Source: Candidatus Thorarchaeota archaeon
Lineage (GTDB): Archaea > Asgardarchaeota > Thorarchaeia > Thorarchaeales > Thorarchaeaceae
Assembly (NCBI GenBank): GCA_048884925.1
Contig: JBHLQK010000001.1
Coordinates: 1-46,868, forward strand
Reading direction: 5' to 3'
Length of the DNA stretch: 46,868 nucleotides
Numbering within the stretch: the stretch's first letter is position 1; each line of letters starts with the position of its first letter. Positions 16,601 through 34,750 of this stretch are shown in pieces. The notes beneath the pieces are model-generated. The model saw only the letters and a list, made by a program, of their open reading frames with translations, was not told where the DNA came from and made no database searches. The translations under genes were made by a program, and so were the position numbers.

Positions 16601-16906
16601 TTATGACTGCCATAGTCCAAACAGATTTCGCAAGGCTCGCGCCCTGTGGTCCTCTATTCGATAGCGGTAGATTTTGATCCGCCCGAACATCTTCTCCTCG
16701 ACTAGACCGGATTCGATAAGCACTTCGAGATGTGATTTGGTCGAGCTATGATTCAAAGAAACTCTCCTGCAGAGTTCGGATATATTCAGCTCGCTGGAAG
16801 TAGCCAGCTCTTTTAGTATCTTGATTCTCCCTCTCGAAGAGAATAGCTCCTCGATTGGCACTCGAAACCTATCATCAGCGTTATTCAAAATCATGAAAAC
16901 CCCCAT
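16601..16906 (-). CDS. small winged-helix (ArsR-like) DNA-binding protein
   Basis: About 101 aa. RGRIKILKEL...LNISELCRRVSLNHSSTKSHLEVLIESGLV is an ArsR/SmtB-type wHTH. Its ATG overlaps the cdc6 stop (TGATG). Confidence 0.7.
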   Translation of the reverse strand: MGVFMILNNADDRFRVPIEELFSSRGRIKILKELATSSELNISELCRRVSLNHSSTKSHLEVLIESGLVEEKMFGRIKIYRYRIEDHRARALRNLFGLWQS

Positions 16907-18099
16907 CAAGTAAGCAAGTCGAGTAGATGCTGTTCTAACATTTCAGCTGGTACATCAGAGAGTCCTATCAGAGTTGTCTGGCCTCTCTGTCCAACACCAG
17001 AACGTTTTGTATCTAGAAGTCCATGAGCATTTAGATCTTGGACCCACTCCCAGACCTGGGTATGAGCCCTTGGCTCTTCGTTGTACTCCTCACATATCGG
17101 ATGATACATCTCTTCGAGCTCGCCCATTGTGATATAGGCACCCCGATTCTCCTTGAGTTGTCTTGCGGCTGCTAGAAGTAGAAGCATGTTCTGTCGTGGA
17201 AGAGCCGCAAACAGCTCCTTCCTCAATTCAGGATGTGTGTCGGCCTTAGCCTTACGGGCATAATCAGGAATCACTTTTCTGGAATTTTCACTGTCAGCCT
17301 GCTTCCCTGCACGCCATAGAAGTTCGATTGCATAACGAGCATCTCCACGTTCTGATGCAATGTCACAGATGAGTTGTAGTGTTTCATCCATGACTACATC
17401 GTGGTCGAATGCAATGTCAGCTCGCCCCTTTAGAATGTCATATAGAGCGTCAGAGGTGTATTGGTCAAACCGGAGAACGTTTCGCTGAAGTGTACTTAAT
17501 GTGCTTTGGTCCAGTATACTCTCATCGAGAGGTATCTTTCTTCCCACTCCTATCACGGAAAGACGCTGAGGCGCATTCAATCGATCATCCATTAGTCGGG
17601 TCAAGTCGTAGAGAATGTCGGCACCTCTCTGTTTAATGAAATAGTCGAGTTCGTCAAGTATTAGTAGAAGATACTTGTCTTCTTCATCAAGTACCTCAAC
17701 AACCATTTGGAGGATTTCTTCCGGTGAGTGACCTCGCCGAGGAAATCTTGGTTTAAACTCCCTCAGCATCCGCAGATACACAAGATAGGTGCTCTTGTTC
17801 ACTCGGCAATTTATGTGCAGATTGTGCAGATTTATGCCCCGTCGGGTTGCTGCTTTTACCATTTGATCCGCGAAACGCTTAGTCACAGCTGTTTTTCCAG
17901 TTCCTACTGGACCTTCAATGATGAACTTCTGACTTGTATGGCCTGGAGAGGCGATTAGTGTCTTGAAACTTTGAGCAAGTGTTCTTAACTCAGGCTCCCG
18001 ATGTGGAAGGGTCTCAGGAACATAATCGATGGAAAGCAATTGCTCCGATTTGAATACACTCTGTCGACTCAGTTCGTCTTCCACATAGTCATGCGTCAT
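16906..18099 (-). CDS. cdc6: Orc1/Cdc6 replication initiator
   Basis: 397 aa. LPHREPEL, Walker A GPVGTGKT, Walker B LILDELD, and a C-terminal winged helix (GRGGQTTLIGL-like RSGVGQRGQTTLIGL). Confidence 0.9.
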   Translation of the reverse strand: MTHDYVEDELSRQSVFKSEQLLSIDYVPETLPHREPELRTLAQSFKTLIASPGHTSQKFIIEGPVGTGKTAVTKRFADQMVKAATRRGINLHNLHINCRVNKSTYLVYLRMLREFKPRFPRRGHSPEEILQMVVEVLDEEDKYLLLILDELDYFIKQRGADILYDLTRLMDDRLNAPQRLSVIGVGRKIPLDESILDQSTLSTLQRNVLRFDQYTSDALYDILKGRADIAFDHDVVMDETLQLICDIASERGDARYAIELLWRAGKQADSENSRKVIPDYARKAKADTHPELRKELFAALPRQNMLLLLAAARQLKENRGAYITMGELEEMYHPICEEYNEEPRAHTQVWEWVQDLNAHGLLDTKRSGVGQRGQTTLIGLSDVPAEMLEQHLLDLLT

Positions 18100-18321
18100 G
18101 AGTCATCCCAATCTAATATAGAAACGATCTTGCAACTTAAAAGAGTTGTGAGAATTGTCCGATTAAACGTATACGAAGAGTGGGGTTAACCGAAAGTAAT
18201 AGTGGCGAGCTCGTTACTCAAGATCCATATCATCGTCACTTTGGACTCATTGGGGTCATGGCAGTCATCACTCGCCACACTCATTTAGGTCCAGTTGTCC
18301 TTAAGTCTGACGAAAAGAATG

Positions 18322-18425
18322 TGCGGCCGCCGGGATTATCTCGACAGCCGATAGTCGTCTGCCGATTCGAACCCGGGTTGGAGGCTTGGGAGGCCTCCGT
18401 CCTAACCAAGCTAGACTACGGCCGC
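18322..18425 (-). tRNA. tRNA-Gly (anticodon CCC) with a roughly 30-nt non-canonical intron in or next to the T-loop; CCA not encoded
   Basis: Minus strand reads GCGGCCG TA GTCT AGCTTGGTTA GGAC G GAGGC CTCCCAA GCCTC CAAC CCGGG TTCGAAT [about 30 nt] CCCGG CGGCCGC A. All stems pair once the insertion is removed. Confidence 0.8.
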
Positions 18426-18536
18426 TGAAGGGGTCATCCTTACGGTGCTTGATAAAAGACTATCGGCAAACCGAAATGCTCCAAGTCAATGCTTATCAAG
18501 GACTTATGGAAAAGCCGGCCCTGAGGATTATACTTC

Positions 18537-19673
18537 ATGCCCGGTAATGATTTATCAGTCAATTTCTGGCAGGGGAATCAGGCATGTGCAGAAGCTGCAA
18601 TCGCAGCAGGTTGCAGTTTTTTTGCTGGCTATCCAATTACTCCAGCTTCTGAGATTGCAGAAATAATGGCAGAGAATCTTCCAAGGGTCGGAGGAACGTA
18701 TCTCCAAATGGAGGATGAGATAGGTGCAATCTCGGCAGTGATTGGGGCCTCATGGGGAGGCGCTCTGTCAATGACTGCTACATCGGGTCCTGGTTTCAGT
18801 CTCATGCAAGAGAATATTGGATATGCCATCATGACTGAAACACCATGTGTTATTGTGAATGTCCAACGTGCAGGACCAAGTACGGGACAGGCAACAAAAG
18901 CTGCACAAGGCGATTTTATGCAATCAAGGTGGGGTACGCATGGTGATGTTGAAAGTATAGTATTGTCCCCAAACTCAGCACAGGAAACATTCGAGCTCAC
19001 CTTGCGTGCCTTTCATCTGTCTGAGAAACTTAGACACCCCGTAATCCTTCTTTCGGACGAGGTTGTGGGACACTCTCGGGAGAAAGTAGTTGTGGACACG
19101 TTAGAAGATTTCAAGGTTCGAAGAAGATATGCAAAAGTGGGAATTCCTCCTTTTGGAGGAATCGATGATAGTGGTTGGGTCCAGATGCCAAGATTCGGTA
19201 ATGGCCATAATCTACTAGTCACTGGATCAACACACGACGAATTTGGCTATCGACGAACAGTAGATCCTGTTGTTCATGACAAGCTTGTTCGTAGAATATC
19301 GGCAAAGGTTCAAAATGAACGTGCTATACTTGCAGATGTAGTCGTGTCAGGTGAGGAATCTGCGAAATGGGGCGTCATATCATATGGCTGTACATCAAGG
19401 TCTGTAGAGGAATTGATTGCAAGAAACTCGGGTAACCTCCCGTTGAGATCGTTGCGATTGAGAACTGTATGGCCATTTCCGGATTCTGAGGTAAGAGAAT
19501 TTGCTGAATCGGTTGAACGATTACTAGTACCTGAACTTAGTCTGGGACAACTCTCCAGAGAAGTATCAAGAGTTGTTGGTGATTCCGTAAACGTGGTTTC
19601 ACTCACCAAAATCGGTGGAGGACTTATGATTGAACCGGATGAACTCCTGGAGAAAATCAAATCAGAATCGTAG
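18537..19673 (+). CDS. korA: 2-oxoacid:ferredoxin oxidoreductase alpha subunit (KorA-type)
   Basis: GNQACAEAAIAAGCSFFAGYPITPASEI...MEDEIGA...TSGPGFSLMQENIGYA...VQRAGPSTGQ. The 378-aa length is normal for KorA. Confidence 0.85.
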   Translation: MPGNDLSVNFWQGNQACAEAAIAAGCSFFAGYPITPASEIAEIMAENLPRVGGTYLQMEDEIGAISAVIGASWGGALSMTATSGPGFSLMQENIGYAIMTETPCVIVNVQRAGPSTGQATKAAQGDFMQSRWGTHGDVESIVLSPNSAQETFELTLRAFHLSEKLRHPVILLSDEVVGHSREKVVVDTLEDFKVRRRYAKVGIPPFGGIDDSGWVQMPRFGNGHNLLVTGSTHDEFGYRRTVDPVVHDKLVRRISAKVQNERAILADVVVSGEESAKWGVISYGCTSRSVEELIARNSGNLPLRSLRLRTVWPFPDSEVREFAESVERLLVPELSLGQLSREVSRVVGDSVNVVSLTKIGGGLMIEPDELLEKIKSES

Positions 19674-21409
19674 CCTGTTGAAGAGATTCCTAACGAAGAT
19701 ATAGGACTTGGTGGATTTGGGTTTCCAACAATTATCACTATGCTAGTTCTCATCCAGATGACTATAGGTTTTGAAATGCTAGTTTCTTCGCACCAAGGGC
19801 TGCTTACATACAGATACAGACTGTGTAATCCTGGATGAATGGAGAGGGGGAAAAGGACTTGTATTGAGAAGGTGATATTTACATTGCTGATTGTGACGAA
19901 CGGGGTAGCTGCTGCATCAGCGTAGATTCTCACATCAACGGTTCTGACCCTTTGTCCGCTATCATCTGTTACATTAAAAGCAATCTCAGCCGTTTCTCCA
20001 TAATAGACCAAATCAAATCCTACAGTGACGCTGATGGCCCCATACACAATAATTTCTAGTTCAAGAGGTCCTTGAGCAATGAACGAGCTATCCCTTATTT
20101 CAATGGCTATTGTATGAGGACCCAGTGAAGTATTGTCAGCAATTGGGAAGCTAAGTTCCGTTAGGCTGTTTGCTATAACCGACGTGTTGGCTCCAATCTC
20201 ACCAATGGAGTCTGTGATTGCTATTGGAATCACCTGGCTCTGTAGGAGGGTCGAATTGATACTGATATTCAATGTGTTATTGCTGCCACGTATGGCTGAC
20301 CAAGAAAAATTCGTTGATGAAAGCTGAACAACATAAGGCATCACATCAACTGTGACTAATTCAGTTTCGTTCCGATATAATGGATTAACAGATGTCAGGT
20401 TCACGTTGTAAAGTCCTGGTTCGACATTGAAAGAAATTGACACGCCATAGTGTCCGATGCCGAGGAAGTTCATTATACCGGAAGAAAAGGAAGTTTCCCA
20501 CTGAATTATGCTATCGGATATAGGTTGGCCTCCCCAGGTTGTTTGCTCTACCAGTATGTCTACAGATTCTATTTGACTGCCATCTGGAGTCTGGCAATGA
20601 ACTGAAGATGGTGAAGATAGAACGGTTAGATTTGAGGCAGCCCTTGTTACTTCGATGGGAAAGGATTCGGAAAAAGGAAGAAAATCTTCGGTCCCATTAC
20701 CTTCTACTACAACTGTATAGTCTCCTGGAGGCCCAGTAGTGTCAGTCCAGTTCATCTGAACTTTTCCGCTTGAGGATGTAATCGTATCTGATTGCATTAT
20801 TGAGTCAAGTGTAGAATTGAGGAGAGTAACTGTCACAGGGCGGTTCCCGTATGGAATAGATTGGTTATGCATACTTACGACTTTGAACTCGATCGTAGTA
20901 TTTGTATTGAATTCAATATTCAATGGTGATAATGGCACGACACTGAGGTGGCCTCTTGTTATATTCACGACTATCGTGTCACCCCCACCCTGTGAATAGG
21001 AATCGTAGATTTCAACATTGAAGATGACAAAGGCCTGTGAGCTAATTGGTCCGGGCGAGGTGTCTTCTGGCATGATAGTGTAGGATGAATTGAAATAACG
21101 CACATCATTTGAGGATGAGATAAAATAGCTATTTGAAAATGTAGGACCTTGGTCGGTCACTACTGCAAATGATACATAACACCATCCATCTTCGCCGAAG
21201 TCCGCGATCAACTTAGCCATCATGTTTATTGTTTCACCTACTTCATACACTAGCTTGTCAGTTTCGAAGTAATGAAATTCAAAATAGAAAGCAGAAACGG
21301 GTGTAACCAGACAAAGTGCAATACATGTGCAGACAATAACAGCTACTAGTGTCCTTTGGCTCAAATGACCCACCAAAACTCGGTTCGTATGTTGCCTAAA
21401 AAACAGCAC
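19310..21409 (-). CDS. secreted repeat-rich (Ig-like/Big-like) surface glycoprotein; C-terminal boundary doubtful
   Basis: GTG start and an N-terminal signal/anchor (LVAVIVCTCIALCLVTPVSA). Long beta-rich repeats with about 18-20 N-x-S/T sequons by eye. The last roughly 120 codons are antisense to korA and S/T-rich. Confidence 0.6.
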   Translation of the reverse strand: MLFFRQHTNRVLVGHLSQRTLVAVIVCTCIALCLVTPVSAFYFEFHYFETDKLVYEVGETINMMAKLIADFGEDGWCYVSFAVVTDQGPTFSNSYFISSSNDVRYFNSSYTIMPEDTSPGPISSQAFVIFNVEIYDSYSQGGGDTIVVNITRGHLSVVPLSPLNIEFNTNTTIEFKVVSMHNQSIPYGNRPVTVTLLNSTLDSIMQSDTITSSSGKVQMNWTDTTGPPGDYTVVVEGNGTEDFLPFSESFPIEVTRAASNLTVLSSPSSVHCQTPDGSQIESVDILVEQTTWGGQPISDSIIQWETSFSSGIMNFLGIGHYGVSISFNVEPGLYNVNLTSVNPLYRNETELVTVDVMPYVVQLSSTNFSWSAIRGSNNTLNISINSTLLQSQVIPIAITDSIGEIGANTSVIANSLTELSFPIADNTSLGPHTIAIEIRDSSFIAQGPLELEIIVYGAISVTVGFDLVYYGETAEIAFNVTDDSGQRVRTVDVRIYADAAATPFVTISNVNITFSIQVLFPLSIHPGLHSLYLYVSSPWCEETSISKPIVIWMRTSIVIIVGNPNPPSPISSLGISSTGYDSDLIFSRSSSGSIISPPPILVSETTFTESPTTLDTSLESCPRLSSGTSNRSTDSANSLTSESGNGHTVLNRNDLNGRLPEFLAINSSTDLDVQPYDMTPHFADSSPDTTTSASIARSF

Positions 21410-25178: not shown

Positions 25179-25285
25179 GCTCCGGTAGATGCCTCATGAA
25201 ACCATGATGCAACCGTATGTAGTCCGGCCCAGCATGAGGGACTCTCGATCCCTCGACCCGGGTTCAAATCCCGGCCGGAGCACCA
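25179..25285 (+). tRNA. tRNA-Glu (anticodon CTC) with a roughly 29-nt non-canonical intron in the D-arm region, CCA encoded
   Basis: GCTCCGG TA G[about 29 nt]TGT AGTCCGGCCCA GCAT G AGGGA CTCTCGA TCCCT CGAC CCGGG TTCAAAT CCCGG CCGGAGC A CCA. The inserted segment folds as TGC-C-TCATG AAAC CATGA-T-GCA. The exact splice points are ambiguous by 1-2 nt. Confidence 0.8.
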
Positions 25286-27260: not shown

Positions 27261-27489
27261 ATACAGTCACCTCATGATGTAGCATTGGGACTATTCTCTG
27301 TAATGATTATACAGAAACGTCATGCATAATCAATTCTGAGTTCTCTCATGAGTCTGCATTCTTGTTTTTAATCTCCTATCGAATAGCCAGATTCTGGGGG
27401 AGTTCATATGCAATTGTAAATCATCAAGGGTGGACTGTGGTGTCATTAGAGGCATTCACAGAGTTCTGACTCCAAACGGGTGATGATGC

Positions 27490-30400
27490 ATGTCCAGCCA
27501 TGTATTGAGCGAGAGAGGCCGATTTAGAGTACCACCCAGAAAGAACAATCTGAGGTTATGGAAATGGATTGAGTTGGGGTGGCTGTTTGGTATTGCTGTC
27601 ATGTTGATTTACTTTGTAGTAGTCTACCTACTTCCACTATTAGGACTAATTGGTCCAGTTTCAATTCCTTCCAAGCTAATCATCGAAATAGTAATTTCAA
27701 TATACCCGGTCTTGATGAGCGGGCTCGTGGCTCGGGGGAAGCTTACTTCCGATGAGGTGTTGAAAGCTGTCCTAGATGATGACTTAGTATCAATACGTAT
27801 AGGAGATTATGTAGTTGCAACATGCTGTCTTGAAATCATCTCTGCTCCTGGATCAGTGCTCGTTGCTAGAAACGACCGACCAGAGTATGCAACTGCATTC
27901 CTTCTTGCTCTTCGTGCAGGAATGGGTGAAAGAGTCAGTATGGCATACGAAGTGGGTGTATTTGGTGGTGAAGCGTTTCTACGGATTTTTATAACTGGGT
28001 CAGGTAGGAATATGGAAGAGGTAGGAGGCACTCTTAGGCGTGAAGCAACCCGAACTGAGGCTATTCTGCTTTCCTCTCTAAATAACGTGGAACTCCATCA
28101 GCTAACAGGGGAAAATTTGAGAGATGCTGTTTCTGGGATTCTCTCAATTGACTTGGAAGGTGGTTCAAAACAATCGTCTGAAGAAATGCATACTGGATTA
28201 TTACTGATTACTGGAGAACCGCGTGTAGAGCCTAGTCTGGAGAGTTCTCAAATTGGGACGTTCATCTCTACTTCGCTTCGCCAGGGATACAATGTGAGTT
28301 TCACATGTGTATTTTCAAAGTCAAAGCCTGGACGTGAACAGAGAAGATTGGAGGGCCAATGGAAAACAATACGCGAGAAGGAAAAGAAGAATGAAGACTC
28401 CTTGGCAGACCAATCAGAAAAAAAGAAGCTGCTGCGTGATTATGAGGAGATACAGGGAAATATCGGCTGGTTTGATTCCTCAGTTTCTCTTGCCATAAGA
28501 GCAGACAGTCGTGGTCAGCTCTCAAGCATTCAAGAAGGTGTATCTGGGATTGTTCATTCAATATGGGGAGGAGAAGGCAATCTCACCTTGAAAAAGAAAG
28601 ATATTGGAAGGAGTGTGATCTACAAACTCCTTCTTAGACGCCACATTGTATCACGGAAAATTCATGTCAGTAGATTGGTAGCTTTCTTGAATACACCAGT
28701 TCAGCAGTTACCAGTTATTGCTGCACCGCCTGTGCCTACGTTTTCCATACCATCAAGAGAAATTGTGAATAACGAGCTCATAATCGGAAAGGCTGTCTTT
28801 GGAGGCAGCCGTCTGAATGATGTTGGTCTCAGACCTGAATGGCTCCGAGAACATATTGCAGTGTTGGGAGCCACCGGTACAGGCAAGACTACTCTTGTGA
28901 AGCATCTCATTGCCGAACTGAGTATAAAGTCAAATGTTCCATGGTGGATATTTGATGTAAAGGGATCTGAATACCATGAATTGGTGAACCTATGTGATGA
29001 GGTTCTTCTGCTGAGGCCTGGGGTGGACCAATCGTTCATAATTGATTTTATGGACCCAGAGATTGATTCTGGCGAAAGGCATGCACATTCAACCTTTAAA
29101 ATCCTGAAAGAACTGCTTAACGAAAGAGGGGTATCTTCAGAGCTTTCACCTGCCATGGAAAAGCTTCTTCGTGAGGCGGTTTCAGAGGTCGCACGTACTT
29201 CAGACAGGGGCAATTCAATTCAAGCACTTATTCATGCAGTATCAGAACTTGCAGGAAAAGACCGTACTGGTATTATGACCAAGGATGCGCTCCTTAATCG
29301 TCTGGAGATACTTTCACAAGAACCGCTTGGGACTATTCTGAGTGGTGGTCAAGAAGCCATAAGGATTTCAAATCTTATGGACAGACGAGTCATTCTGGAT
29401 TTGCAGTATGTTGCTAGAACAGGAGGAATGGAAGCAGCTCGTTTACTCTATAATCTCATTGCAAAACGTATCTTTGATTGTGCACTGAACCGAGGTATAA
29501 AACTCGGGCTTCATCATCTAGTGGTACTCGAGGAGGCTAGTAATCTTGTACCTGAGAGTTATACTAGGCACACAGCTGCAGATGTCACAACCGGAGAATC
29601 TATGGTGATGCTCCAAAGAGCCACTGGACAAGGTGTTATCGTAATATCAACTCGACCGAATGTGTCTTCAAACATTTTGGCAAACACTGCTACGAAGATT
29701 ACTTTCCGTCTTCCCTATGATAGCCCAATCGGGGCGAAATTCATGTCCCTTGACGAAAAACAAGAGCGTTATTTGAAGACACTAAAACGTGGAAGAGCGC
29801 TAATTGTTTTGCCCGGGACGGAACCGTTCGAGATTGCCACTTGGCCATTTGAGATAGCATCCATCTCAAAGATGCCAATTGAAGCTGTAACTCATGATAA
29901 GACTGCGATTGAAGCTGAATTGGAAGAAAGTCGAGAAGTTTCTCTTGAATATGATGTAGCTGTTCGGTCGGAAAGTAATAAGTCATCCAAGCCAGTAGGA
30001 GCAATGTATGACAGGCTAGGAGAGCTAGGATCGCATATTGTGGCCTTTCTTGCCACTAGGAGTATGGGAACTCAAGCTGAAATCCAAGGGATTTTGACAT
30101 CAATCGATCCTAGGATAGAAAGTGATGACATAAGTGAGGTAATTCGAGACTTGGTTTCCTTGGGAACGATTGAAAGAGAGGCACTGTCACTTGTGCCGGG
30201 TGATTTCATATTTACTCTGCCTGGTAGAGGACTTGATGCGGTAAGAACGGCAATTACTGACTATATTATCGAGAAGCTAGGACTGCTTGATATCACGTGG
30301 GAACGTAATTTAGATGGAGGACCTGATATAATTCTTGATGATAGAGCCCTTTTGATACTCCCTCAGCATCTCAAAGCATCATCAATGAAAACAACTCTAG

Positions 30401-31281
30401 CTAAAATTAGGAATTACATGGGCAAATTAGGAAATAATGTAATCGAGCTGATTGTGATTGTCAGAGGAAGTGTTGCAGCAGCTAAGCTTAGAGAAGTCAT
30501 GGATGAAACAAACGAGTTTGATGCAGTTAGCATAGTTTCAGCATTTCCAAGTTCACTGAATACAATGATTGAGAGCTTAGCAACGGGCACATCAACAAAT
30601 GTGGACTTGACAACTGACGATGATATGAATAGAGATGAAGAACAAGGAATCAAGCTCATTGGTGCCATGCACGACGTTGGGACTGCAACTAACCGTGCTA
30701 TACAGATGCGACTATGGTTTCAGCTGATTCAGGATTTCGTGGATTTATCCAATGGTAGAATCGAATGGAATGTCTTGCTAGAGTTCATCGAAACGACGGC
30801 TCTACAGTCACTCAAGGGTAAAACTACTCCAATGAGTGCTGAAGAGGGGAAACGTGCATTGACAGAACTTCTAGCTGATGAAGTCCTGATGGCACTTCGT
30901 GTTGGGAATGATTTTGATTTCATCGATTTGAACGAAGGACTCTGGATTGTGAACTCAGGCGAACTGGGAAAACTAAAGGATTCGGCTGTTGATGCTCTGG
31001 AGAAAGAGCTACGAAAGCAACAGAGTCCGGTTTCCCGCAATCATGGTTATTATGACCTTTGCACAAATGGTGTTTCGTATGTTGTATTTCCAAATCAGCA
31101 GCAGCTAAATACGTTACTCCATCTTCAGAATGAAATTGCATGCAGAACATGTAAGTCAGGACGGGTTGTCTGTGTGTTGACAGCGGCCGAGTATCTTGAG
31201 GATAGTGTAATCATGCCGGAAAACATCCTTCTTTATGACTTCTCAGAGTATGTTTCTGTGGCTAGTACAGCAGGACATTAA
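27490..31281 (+). CDS. 1263-aa membrane-anchored FtsK-HerA-superfamily ATPase (HerA/VirB4-like core) with winged-helix-containing C-terminal extension
   Basis: Two to three N-terminal TM helices (residues about 25-80). Walker A VLGATGTGKTT (DNA about 28861-28893), Walker B HHLVVLEEASNLVPE (about 29515-29560), and an STRP...ITFRL arginine-finger region as in HerA/DUF87. The C-terminal roughly 470 aa includes IVAFLATRSMGTQAEIQGIL...LVSLGTIERE (wH-like). Confidence 0.75.
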   Translation: MSSHVLSERGRFRVPPRKNNLRLWKWIELGWLFGIAVMLIYFVVVYLLPLLGLIGPVSIPSKLIIEIVISIYPVLMSGLVARGKLTSDEVLKAVLDDDLVSIRIGDYVVATCCLEIISAPGSVLVARNDRPEYATAFLLALRAGMGERVSMAYEVGVFGGEAFLRIFITGSGRNMEEVGGTLRREATRTEAILLSSLNNVELHQLTGENLRDAVSGILSIDLEGGSKQSSEEMHTGLLLITGEPRVEPSLESSQIGTFISTSLRQGYNVSFTCVFSKSKPGREQRRLEGQWKTIREKEKKNEDSLADQSEKKKLLRDYEEIQGNIGWFDSSVSLAIRADSRGQLSSIQEGVSGIVHSIWGGEGNLTLKKKDIGRSVIYKLLLRRHIVSRKIHVSRLVAFLNTPVQQLPVIAAPPVPTFSIPSREIVNNELIIGKAVFGGSRLNDVGLRPEWLREHIAVLGATGTGKTTLVKHLIAELSIKSNVPWWIFDVKGSEYHELVNLCDEVLLLRPGVDQSFIIDFMDPEIDSGERHAHSTFKILKELLNERGVSSELSPAMEKLLREAVSEVARTSDRGNSIQALIHAVSELAGKDRTGIMTKDALLNRLEILSQEPLGTILSGGQEAIRISNLMDRRVILDLQYVARTGGMEAARLLYNLIAKRIFDCALNRGIKLGLHHLVVLEEASNLVPESYTRHTAADVTTGESMVMLQRATGQGVIVISTRPNVSSNILANTATKITFRLPYDSPIGAKFMSLDEKQERYLKTLKRGRALIVLPGTEPFEIATWPFEIASISKMPIEAVTHDKTAIEAELEESREVSLEYDVAVRSESNKSSKPVGAMYDRLGELGSHIVAFLATRSMGTQAEIQGILTSIDPRIESDDISEVIRDLVSLGTIEREALSLVPGDFIFTLPGRGLDAVRTAITDYIIEKLGLLDITWERNLDGGPDIILDDRALLILPQHLKASSMKTTLAKIRNYMGKLGNNVIELIVIVRGSVAAAKLREVMDETNEFDAVSIVSAFPSSLNTMIESLATGTSTNVDLTTDDDMNRDEEQGIKLIGAMHDVGTATNRAIQMRLWFQLIQDFVDLSNGRIEWNVLLEFIETTALQSLKGKTTPMSAEEGKRALTELLADEVLMALRVGNDFDFIDLNEGLWIVNSGELGKLKDSAVDALEKELRKQQSPVSRNHGYYDLCTNGVSYVVFPNQQQLNTLLHLQNEIACRTCKSGRVVCVLTAAEYLEDSVIMPENILLYDFSEYVSVASTAGH

Positions 31282-34456: not shown

Positions 34457-34501
34457 GGACCTTAAATCCCTATTAATGAGAATATTTAATGTGTGAAATC
34501 A

Positions 34502-34750
34502 ATGCCAGCAGTTCTACTTAGTCCGTTGGCTGACTTTGCCAGCCTGATAGCCGGGTATTTTGTGGAAATATGGGACTTTCTGATTTTCATAGGTGGAGTT
34601 TCAGCAGTGATTGTCGTCCTTGCGGGAGCAATTCTATGGTTCACAGAGATAAACTCGAAACGTGGTAAGGGTCTAGTGATGAGTGGAATACTTCTTGCAA
34701 TAATCGTACAATATTTTGTCACCTATCCTCCTGTCTTCGGAATTGGTTAG
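34502..34750 (+). CDS. small two-helix membrane protein (VirB2/TrbC-like hairpin topology, speculative)
   Basis: 82 aa. Two long hydrophobic helices (FLIFIGGVSAVIVVLAGAILWF and LVMSGILLAIIVQYFV) joined by the basic loop SKRGKG. The antisense track ORF 34486-34722 was rejected. Confidence 0.5.
   Translation: MPAVLLSPLADFASLIAGYFVEIWDFLIFIGGVSAVIVVLAGAILWFTEINSKRGKGLVMSGILLAIIVQYFVTYPPVFGIG

Follow-up and report, generated by a model that had tools for sequence, protein, structure and literature searches.

What is the giant ATPase of Thorarchaeota, and what does it move? We address this question for a gene in a 46,868-nucleotide stretch of Candidatus Thorarchaeota archaeon (positions 1 to 46,868 of the forward strand of contig JBHLQK010000001.1, assembly GCA_048884925.1), which as a whole we call the window. 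The initial annotation, made from the sequence alone, described the product of 1263 amino acids (aa) as a membrane-anchored HerA/VirB4-like ATPase with long terminal extensions, and suggested either a DNA translocase at the envelope or a HerA-based defence or sensor module. Our preferred reading, held with moderate confidence, is that the ATPase serves as a CedD/VirB4-type motor in an envelope machine that is associated with a pilus and translocates a substrate, probably DNA. The evidence that weighs decisively comes from the genomic context, which the initial annotation missed; its interpretation is upheld in part.

The ATPase gene is genuine. The window is a piece of archaeal core chromosome, carrying genes for TFIIB, ribosomal S10/S20e, MCM, GINS, RFC, Orc1/Cdc6 and Hel308, and the homologues of the ATPase place it in Thorarchaeota, an Asgard lineage. 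More than 120 non-redundant full-length homologues (~1260 aa) share 52-94% identity with the ATPase, and in a scan of species-representative genomes, more than 50 Thorarchaeota assemblies carry the gene, the closed chromosome CP070658.1 among them. It is full length in the 56 Thorarchaeota-type (Thor) loci that we collected and is present in every Thor-type locus examined. Because the same architecture recurs in all of these proteins and loci, across independent assemblies and in a closed genome, a chimera of two genes, which the initial annotation had allowed for, is excluded. An exhaustive search of 1.84 billion representatives returned 1757 relatives. The full architecture, including the C-terminal extension, occurs in about nine 50%-identity clusters, so that the fusion does recur in relatives, as the initial annotation had proposed to check. 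A second tier at 25-35% identity (740-1440 aa, mostly with one to six N-terminal transmembrane (TM) segments) matches over the N-domain and ATPase only and, by genome matches, comes from Odinarchaeota, Baldrarchaeota, Helarchaeota and further Asgard metagenome-assembled genomes (MAGs), while in Methanomethylicota, Thermoproteota, Nitrososphaeria, Archaeoglobus and some bacteria the matches are confined to the ATPase domain.

The protein reads from its N-terminus as a membrane hairpin, an N-domain, a P-loop core and a C-terminal extension (Table 1). Hydropathy gives two strong TM segments (residues ~28-53 and 62-81, peaks 2.66 and 2.20), and an AlphaFold2 (AF2) model of residues 1-800, built from a 39-sequence alignment (predicted local distance difference test score, pLDDT, 75), places helices at residues 21-51 and 62-87. 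Residues 1-24 are basic (6 K/R), and the hairpin is therefore predicted to be N-in, with the bulk of the protein cytoplasmic. Two of the two to three TM helices initially placed at about residues 25-80 are thus borne out; the third is not, because the hydrophobic stretch at 108-126 is modelled as a β-strand of the N-domain. The Lys/Glu-rich segment that had been left within unassigned sequence is real, but it belongs to this α/β N-domain as a conserved helical hairpin (H282-299 and H305-322) rather than as low complexity, with E283, E288, W291, E298, E302, K311 and Y318 invariant. The N-domain is common to the Odinarchaeota, Baldrarchaeota, Helarchaeota and other Asgard relatives at ~30% identity. 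In the core, the FtsK-HerA P-loop assignment stands: with 57 bits, the Pfam match to DUF87/HerA central domain exceeds its cutoff of 23.2, and the Walker A (GATGTGKT, residue 460), Walker B (VVLEEA, 678), STRPN (720) and FRLPYD (739) motifs are all conserved, also in relatives at ~30% identity. Walker A, Walker B (hhhhEEA) and the S/T-R-P arginine, the putative arginine finger, are invariant even in these relatives and, judged from these motifs, the ATPase should be catalytically active.

To place the core within the superfamily, family-model scores were used as a proxy for an ATPase-core phylogeny. The best NCBIfam match is CedD (NF053655; E 2.7e-12, 46 bits, residues 429-776), which is the sole matching NCBIfam model to span the whole ATPase domain, whereas the HerA, CedB and VirB4 models cover little beyond the Walker A region. 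CedD (saci_0667/SiRe_1715) is a membrane-bound HerA/VirB4/VirD4-like ATPase and CedB paralogue that is essential for DNA import (PMC11868833, PMC11823120). Scores against its model follow a gradient, from 46 bits for the window ATPase through 88 bits in second-tier Asgard relatives to ~220 bits (E ~1e-65) for the ATPases of the TACK clusters described below. Against PDB sequences, a single-sequence search gave nothing significant, and a profile search retrieved the HerA clade only (SIR2-HerA, T. kodakarensis HerA and DptH), with VirB4, FtsK and TrwB not significant. The family models for VirB4 (TIGR00929, 17.4 bits versus 643) and TrwB_AAD_bind (PF10412, 17.6 bits versus 20.5) stay below their cutoffs. 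By sequence, the core belongs to the HerA clade and not with FtsK, TraB or bacterial VirB4.

By predicted fold, residues 1-800 best match full-length VirB4. Foldseek ranks TrwK/VirB4 of the R388 type IV secretion system first (E 3.8e-19, ~835 columns, N-domain included; alignments with full-length TrwK/VirB4 span about 800-840 columns) and Sulfolobus HerA next (E 2.6e-14, 591 columns), and the model has the two domains of VirB4, an N-terminal domain and a RecA-like C-terminal domain (CTD). The best local superpositions are with the VirB4 CTD (TM-score to target 0.72) and TrwB (0.62-0.66); the global TM-score to full-length VirB4 is only 0.32, as the domain orientation differs. The profile and structure comparisons together return a HerA-clade core with a VirB4-like fold, a combination of core and N-domain that has been reported for CedB and CedD (PMC11868833). 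Of the initial likening to CedB, TraB or VirB4, the first holds through the paralogue CedD as the best family match and the last through the fold, and the grouping with TraB is not upheld.

The extension is the part that sets the Thor proteins apart. In its AF2 model, disordered linkers separate four modules: a first winged helix (wH1, residues 838-930), an α/β module (947-1033), a second winged helix (wH2, 1065-1155) and a Cys-rich β module (1156-1262). The wH modules find the extended winged helix (eWH) of tau138 (TFIIIC) and cullin WHB (TM-score to target 0.70), as well as MarR and HxlR, and they are the only parts of the extension that fold matches back. Foldseek searches of the extension in PDB and BFVD gave no match at E <1e-3; what they returned were local wH matches and a weak YaeQ-like one, and the viral library BFVD contributed nothing further. 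When the extensions of eight diverse members were scanned, no Pfam family matched up to E 1. The single wH-like module or more that had been called is therefore best seen as two predicted ones, and the terminal Cys pair as part of a set of four conserved residues (C1191, C1218, C1221 and C1228), which are not universal in the most divergent members, such as P0127. As for the analogy with the wH domains of FtsK gamma and TraB, the likeness is one of structure, and no homology was detected; no Ftsk_gamma match appeared in Pfam scans of the whole ATPase or of the extension. According to hidden Markov models of the single modules, wH1, wH2 and the Cys module are confined to the Thor-type family, and the α/β module is shared with a second-tier clade (P0141/P0271; E 8e-6, hhalign E 5e-5). 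In Baldrarchaeota (L064, 12987-14090, -) and in an archaeal MAG (L062, 4925-6067, -), a convergent gene just downstream of the ATPase relative encodes a separate multi-wH protein of 367-380 aa (MarR/HTH_45-type). This protein may be a functional analogue of the Thor extension; in hhalign comparisons no homology of the extension was detected either to it or to the C-terminus of the Baldrarchaeota ATPase.

Within Thorarchaeota, the ATPase gene is embedded in a cluster with the order RpoG-like, TFIIB-like, T2SSE ATPase, Flp-like, tRNA, immunoglobulin (Ig)-repeat protein (minus strand), ATPase, amino-acid kinase/S10/GlmS and 85-aa protein. Among the 37 Thor loci with enough flank, the RpoG-like, T2SSE and Ig-repeat genes are each found in 37/37, the TFB-like and Flp-like genes in 36/37 and the 85-aa gene in 34/37, with all five partners together in 33/37. 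Two Thor loci have the TFB/T2SSE/Flp block on the other side of the ATPase, still within 10 kb. The TFB-like protein is the most conserved of the cluster (64-93% identity within Thor), and the T2SSE ATPase carries an N-terminal Cys cluster (C11, C16, C19 and C27). The motif of the Flp-like protein, [GA][GS]PL[VI]EE..L.GL, is kept in Thor, second-tier Asgard archaea, Helarchaeota and five TACK loci. The Ig-repeat protein has TM segments at residues 1 and 621. The 85-aa protein could be an analogue of CedA1 or TedC; in a search of PDB sequences its family matched neither of these, nor VirB2.

As housekeeping genes are equally syntenic within Thor, the more distant lineages provide the real test of linkage. 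In an Asgard lineage whose ATPase has ~30% identity to that of the window, the housekeeping neighbours all differ, and a ~650-aa Ig-repeat homologue (E 3e-22) is still divergently adjacent to the ATPase gene, with the TFIIB-like, T2SSE (36% identity) and Flp-like trio 7 kb away. In Helarchaeota, a TFIIB-like gene (41-43% identity, E 2e-83 for the match at 43%) lies directly upstream of a 1393-aa ATPase relative and a Flp-like gene and T2SSE lie within ~8 kb; on a second contig, a gene for a platform-like protein comes after that for T2SSE. T2SSE orthologues at 32-42% identity occur near ATPase relatives in loci L005, L089/L090, L067, L068, L073 and L079, of which L068, L073 and L079 are from Methanomethylicota and Thermoproteota. 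The TACK order is a TFB-like gene, four small proteins with an N-terminal TM segment (pilin-like), T2SSE (36-42%), a polytopic membrane protein, a Flp-like gene and a two-TM ATPase of ~600 aa; in L068 and L079 the last two of these genes, Flp-like and CedD-like, overlap, stop codon with start, and in the Thermoprotei locus L073 a clear RpoG (E 4e-10) precedes the TFB-like gene. In Odinarchaeota, Baldrarchaeota and L062, the gene immediately upstream of the ATPase encodes a two-TM protein of 81-83 aa that is homologous to the 85-aa protein of the window (34-38% identity, tblastn ~1e-11), and in Odinarchaeota a T2SSF-like platform gene comes after the one for an Ig-protein homologue. Clusters of TACK, Odinarchaeota and Helarchaeota thus encode a platform protein, which is not found nearby in Thor. 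The triad of TFB-like protein, T2SSE and CedD-like ATPase recurs in Helarchaeota, in another Asgard lineage and in several TACK lineages.

We envisage the following machine. The ATPase would form a hexameric ring, like every relative studied so far, at the inner face of the membrane, to which, on the computational evidence, the N-in two-TM hairpin tethers the cytoplasmic VirB4-like N-domain and the catalytically intact HerA-clade P-loop domain. The T2SSE ATPase and the Flp-type protein would build a short pilus or pseudopilus, the 85-aa two-TM protein could be a VirB2- or VirB3-like component, and the surface-anchored Ig-repeat protein may act as an adhesin. At the pilus or cell-contact site, the ring would pump DNA across the cytoplasmic membrane, DNA being the presumed substrate because of the analogy with CedD and the HerA clade. 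The C-terminal extension might bind the nucleic-acid substrate or pass it on, or it might provide a docking site for partner proteins, a task performed elsewhere by a separate coupling protein or by the wH domains of FtsK gamma and TraB. The TFIIB paralogue would play the role that TFB3 has for the ced and ups genes in Sulfolobus, that is, it would be a dedicated activator of the cluster analogous to TFB3.

Several points weigh against this reading. The function is inferred. With 46 bits against an equivalog cutoff of 600, the ATPase is a distant relative of CedD and by the NCBI criterion no orthologue, and the Odinarchaeota and Baldrarchaeota relatives do not match the CedD model. The wH calls come from a model of medium confidence (pLDDT 73) and from fold matches that are local, at E >1e-3, and no DNA-binding, nuclease or relaxase domain was identified in the ATPase. 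The whole Thor region is syntenic, housekeeping genes included, which makes synteny within Thor weak evidence. No CedA/VirB6/TedA-like polytopic channel, CedB or platform protein lies within 10 kb in Thor; likewise, CedA, CedA1, CedB and TedA/B/C are absent from the window and from within 10 kb in Thor loci, and there is no VirB6-like polytopic gene in the window. Finally, Makarova et al. suspected that subsystem 4D, to which we return below, is related to transcription and not to a pilus (PMC4858521).

The alternative that survives best keeps the envelope and drops the DNA: the ATPase would serve the biogenesis of a pilus or other surface structure, or protein export, extracting the Flp-like and 85-aa proteins or exporting and anchoring the Ig-repeat adhesin, with its wH modules mediating protein-protein contacts. 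Indeed, the Ig-repeat protein is the tightest and most persistent partner of the ATPase, its gene being divergent from and adjacent to that of the ATPase in 46/47 Thor loci, and the Flp-like gene of TACK is translationally coupled to the CedD-like ATPase. However, a T2SSE ATPase that could power pilus assembly is already there, and CedD, the sole characterised close family member, is needed for DNA import and not for aggregation or pili (PMC11823120). The VirB4-like overall fold and the frequent role of wH domains, such as cullin WHB, in protein interactions suit this alternative, whereas the HerA-clade rings characterised so far act on DNA. On balance, we consider it rather doubtful, although it is the most serious competitor.

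The chromosomal position of the gene raises a second alternative. The ATPase lies ~9 kb from Orc1/Cdc6 and within ~19 kb of MCM, GINS, RFC and Hel308, and this fixed place in the core chromosome, together with its occurrence in every Thor-type locus, could indicate a housekeeping role, either as a membrane-anchored analogue of FtsK, in chromosome segregation or division, or in a transcription-linked pathway with the Rpb8-like, TFIIB-like and T2SSE proteins. The order of TM segments, motor and C-terminal wH modules is like that in FtsK and TraB, but the FtsK_SpoIIIE model (PF01580) reaches only 17.7 bits against 24, in the Walker A region alone, no FtsK gamma domain is found and the profile match to FtsK is not significant (E ~0.8). 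Similarly, the adjacency of Rpb8 and TFIIB has been noted for 4D (PMC4858521), but the TFB paralogue is more simply explained as a regulator, like TFB3, and the pilin-like, platform and surface-protein partners point to the envelope. We therefore judge a housekeeping role unlikely.

A role in anti-virus defence or sensing, as in SIR2-HerA, DUF4297-HerA or MADS, was the alternative named in the initial annotation. PADLOC mad8 matches the ATPase domain only (E 1e-15, residues 437-779), several defence-HerA models match as well, and the best PDB sequence matches are defence HerAs. However, these models mostly match the Walker A region, the membrane anchor and VirB4-like N-domain take the place of a HAS-barrel, for which there is no Pfam match in the ATPase, and no SIR2, nuclease or methyltransferase effector is encoded nearby. 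Unlike in defence islands, position and partners are invariant in all 56 Thor-type loci, and so fixed a core-chromosome position makes a defence module very improbable. The last candidates, a canonical HerA end-resection helicase or the chimera excluded above, have in their favour only the DUF87/HerA central domain match and the unusual length, and can be set aside almost entirely, as the HerA equivalog models, with cutoffs of 800-970, give 17 bits (HerA_Thermprot 17 versus 800), the protein has two TM segments, and no NurA, Mre11 or Rad50 is found among the Pfam-annotated neighbours ~8 kb upstream and 6 kb downstream, or likewise in the homologous Thor loci; on both counts, the protein is not the soluble, NurA-paired HerA that the initial annotation had also rejected.

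Table 1. Features of the cluster, of the ATPase and of its upstream region, in window coordinates.
Feature	Coordinates	Strand	Basis or remark
RpoG/Rpb8-like protein, 121 aa	21482..21847	+	Pfam RNA_pol_RpbG weak, E 1.5e-4
TFIIB/TFB paralogue, 345 aa	22020..23057	+	Pfam TFIIB and Zn_Ribbon_TF weak; Zn ribbon and one detectable cyclin repeat
T2SSE secretion ATPase (TadA/FlaI/VirB11-like), 560 aa	23114..24796	+	Pfam T2SSE E 3e-18; NCBIfam TadA, FlaI, VirB11
Flp/type-IV-prepilin-like protein, ~64 aa	24888..25082	+	G|GPLVEE, then hydrophobic helix
tRNA	25209-25282	+	Rfam 35.6 bits; between Flp-like gene and 3' end of Ig-repeat gene
Ig-repeat surface protein, 654 aa	25296..27260	-	Weak Big_3_5 and Big_1; N-terminal signal, C-terminal TM anchor
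Divergent intergenic region, Ig-repeat gene/ATPase	27261..27489		Two conserved non-coding blocks
Block 1, TTTTTAATCTCCTA	27365-27378		Conserved non-coding
Block 2, GGGGAGTTCATATG	27397-27410		Conserved non-coding; pattern GGGG[AT]GTTC[AT]TATG
ATPase open reading frame (ORF), 1263 aa	27490..31281	+	ATG to stop
N-terminal two-TM hairpin	27550..27750	+	Residues ~21-51, 62-87; predicted N-in
N-domain	27766..28689	+	Residues ~93-400; two α/β subdomains; VirB4-NTD-like fold (AF2)
FtsK-HerA superfamily P-loop core	28777..29838	+	Residues ~430-783; helical insert 528-616
C-terminal extension, ~470 aa	30001..31278	+	Four modules; AF2 model, pLDDT 73
85-aa protein, two to three hydrophobic segments	34493..34750	+	Candidate VirB2/CedA1- or VirB3-like partner

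Upstream of the ATPase, the two non-coding blocks are shared by 48/50 Thor loci; their order is constant, their spacing varies, and each is unique in the window. Block 2 resembles a ribosome-binding site followed by ATG. It was rejected as a micro-ORF (GGGGAG-N5-ATG), since the ATG opens only an upstream ORF of 1-45 codons whose peptide is not conserved, and in several Thor loci it is directly followed by a stop; block 2 may instead be a translational or transcriptional control element. Neither block recurs upstream of other cluster genes in the window, so nothing points to a regulatory motif common to the cluster.

Some further observations concern the surroundings. The tRNA within the cluster ends in GGTTCAAATCCCGGCCGGAGCACCA, with CCA encoded, and was not reported by ARAGORN; it may be intron-containing or atypical. 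A second Ig-like surface protein (699 aa, 19310-21409, -; signal-anchor, weak MG2 and Big_1) has its gene upstream of the RpoG-like one in 36/37 Thor loci and not in other lineages. Its longest ORF overlaps the 3' end of a POR alpha-like gene (18537-19673) by ~360 nucleotides, and its true start therefore probably lies further downstream. The intergenic region 18100-18536, with tRNA-Gly(ccc) at 18352-18426 (-), adjoins Orc1/Cdc6 (16906-18099, -), and MCM, GINS, the RFC small and large subunits and Hel308 are all within 10 kb of it. As a candidate replication origin, this place next to Orc1/Cdc6 was rejected, as it shows no repeats like the origin recognition box, only short palindromes. The window also encodes a Roadblock/LC7-domain protein (359-1306, -), a eukaryote-signature gene, and Arf/Ras-family small GTPases are found near ATPase relatives in L005 (21205-21693, -) and L007 (18262-18750, -), and in both Helarchaeota loci, of which L089 also has a faint Roadblock/LC7 match (eukaryote-signature genes at L089, 17565-18533 and 19520-20083, +, and L090, 3851-4735, -).

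Among the relatives, three second-tier Asgard loci (L005, 7556-7900, -; L007; L060) have a conserved gene for a 113-114-aa protein directly downstream of the ~650-aa surface-protein gene, with no Pfam match and no counterpart in the Thor window. In Thorarchaeota SMTZ1-45 (L078, LRSL01000042.1, 1-3481), a six-TM polytopic protein is followed by a 907-aa three-TM ATPase with 24-25% identity to the core of the window ATPase. This pair looks like a more classical VirB6/VirB4-type module, Ced-like or conjugative, and the same genome also has the giant ATPase.

The interest of the cluster lies in what it brings together. Experimental knowledge of Ced/Ted-type DNA exchange has so far come from Thermoproteota alone, type-IV-filament (TFF) systems have been reported as largely absent from Asgard archaea, and 4D has been treated as an orphan of Pyrobaculum and Thermoproteus. 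The cluster joins CedD-type ATPases, the 4D/TFIIB/Rpb8 module and a Flp-like mini-pilin, from TACK to Thor, Helarchaeota and other Asgard archaea, and it is not described as a single unit in the CedD and 4D literature cited here. The giant Thor form adds an extension of ~470 aa without family assignment to the CedD/VirB4-like ATPases, and the gene set allows DNA exchange or contact structures to be tested in Asgard archaea. More tentatively, and as a possibility that we would place well below the motor function itself, the cluster may be an ancient TACK-Asgard machine for intercellular DNA exchange, of which the tfb3-cedD pair of Sulfolobus is a remnant and in which the Thor motor fuses VirB4-like, coupling-protein-like and wH/Cys DNA-recognition functions. 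If so, the archaea most closely related to eukaryotes would have conserved the exchange of chromosomal DNA under a dedicated TFB.

When compared to known systems, the window ATPase has the HerA-clade P-loop core in common with canonical and defence HerA proteins and differs from them in being membrane-anchored and 2.5 times longer, with no HAS-barrel match and no NurA or effector partner. With the type IV coupling proteins (TrwB/VirD4) and FtsK/TraB, it shares a TM anchor, an FtsK-HerA-superfamily motor that would be hexameric here as well, a helical insert in the NTPase domain (528-616 here) and predicted C-terminal wH modules like those of FtsK gamma and TraB, whereas its large N-domain is absent from the coupling proteins and FtsK. 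VirB4/TrwK matches it in fold over ~800 residues, its membrane association recalls VirB3-VirB4 fusions, and its gene likewise lies near those for a VirB11-family (T2SSE) ATPase and small TM proteins. In contrast to VirB4 systems, there is no significant profile match and there are no VirB6, VirB8 or VirB10 genes, and VirB4 has no wH extension.

For the upstream block, the closest parallel is TFF subclade 4D, an uncharacterised T4P-like subsystem in which the operon of a secretion ATPase bearing a small N-terminal Cys-rich domain includes or adjoins genes for a TFIIB homologue and Rpb8 (PMC4858521); a 2026 preprint still treats it as Thermoproteales-specific and possibly repurposed (10.64898/2026.04.22.720090). 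The block of the window matches it in the N-terminal Cys residues of T2SSE, the TFIIB with a single cyclin repeat, the adjacent RpoG-like (Rpb8-like) gene and the lack of a classical pilin set. The known 4D systems are in Pyrobaculum and Thermoproteus and have a 4-5-TM protein but no CedD-like ATPase, whereas the block described here is in Asgard archaea and comes with a Flp-like mini-pilin, an Ig-repeat protein and the giant ATPase. A cognate 4-5-TM (TadC-like) protein is absent within 10 kb in Thor and present in the TACK, Odinarchaeota and Helarchaeota relatives. Neither of the two 4D sources links 4D to a HerA/VirB4-type ATPase or to Asgard archaea.

The nearest system overall is CedD/TedD, of the Ced (Sulfolobales) and Ted (Thermoproteales) systems for DNA exchange. 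CedD, which combines a TM segment and an N-domain with a HerA/VirB4-type ATPase (PMC11868833), is TFB3-dependent and induced through this factor (PMC11823120, PMC11868833, PMC6101591), the inducing signal being DNA damage, and the window ATPase has the same layout of N-terminal TM segments, N-domain and HerA-clade ATPase, with a TFB paralogue encoded nearby. The two differ in size, CedD having ~527 aa and the window ATPase a larger N-domain and the long extension, and in partners, those of the window ATPase being a Flp-like pilin, an Ig-repeat protein and a T2SSE ATPase; the family score falls short as given above (46 versus 600 bits). In S. acidocaldarius, tfb3 is saci_0665 (PMC5817253, PMC6934391), and the tag that follows, saci_0666, belongs to the gene for the thermosome beta subunit (PMC4569737), so that tfb3 and cedD (saci_0667) are near-neighbours, two locus tags apart. 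This proximity agrees with an ancestral linkage of a TFB-like gene with a CedD-like ATPase, and the cluster offers a rationale for the position of tfb3 beside cedD in Sulfolobus.

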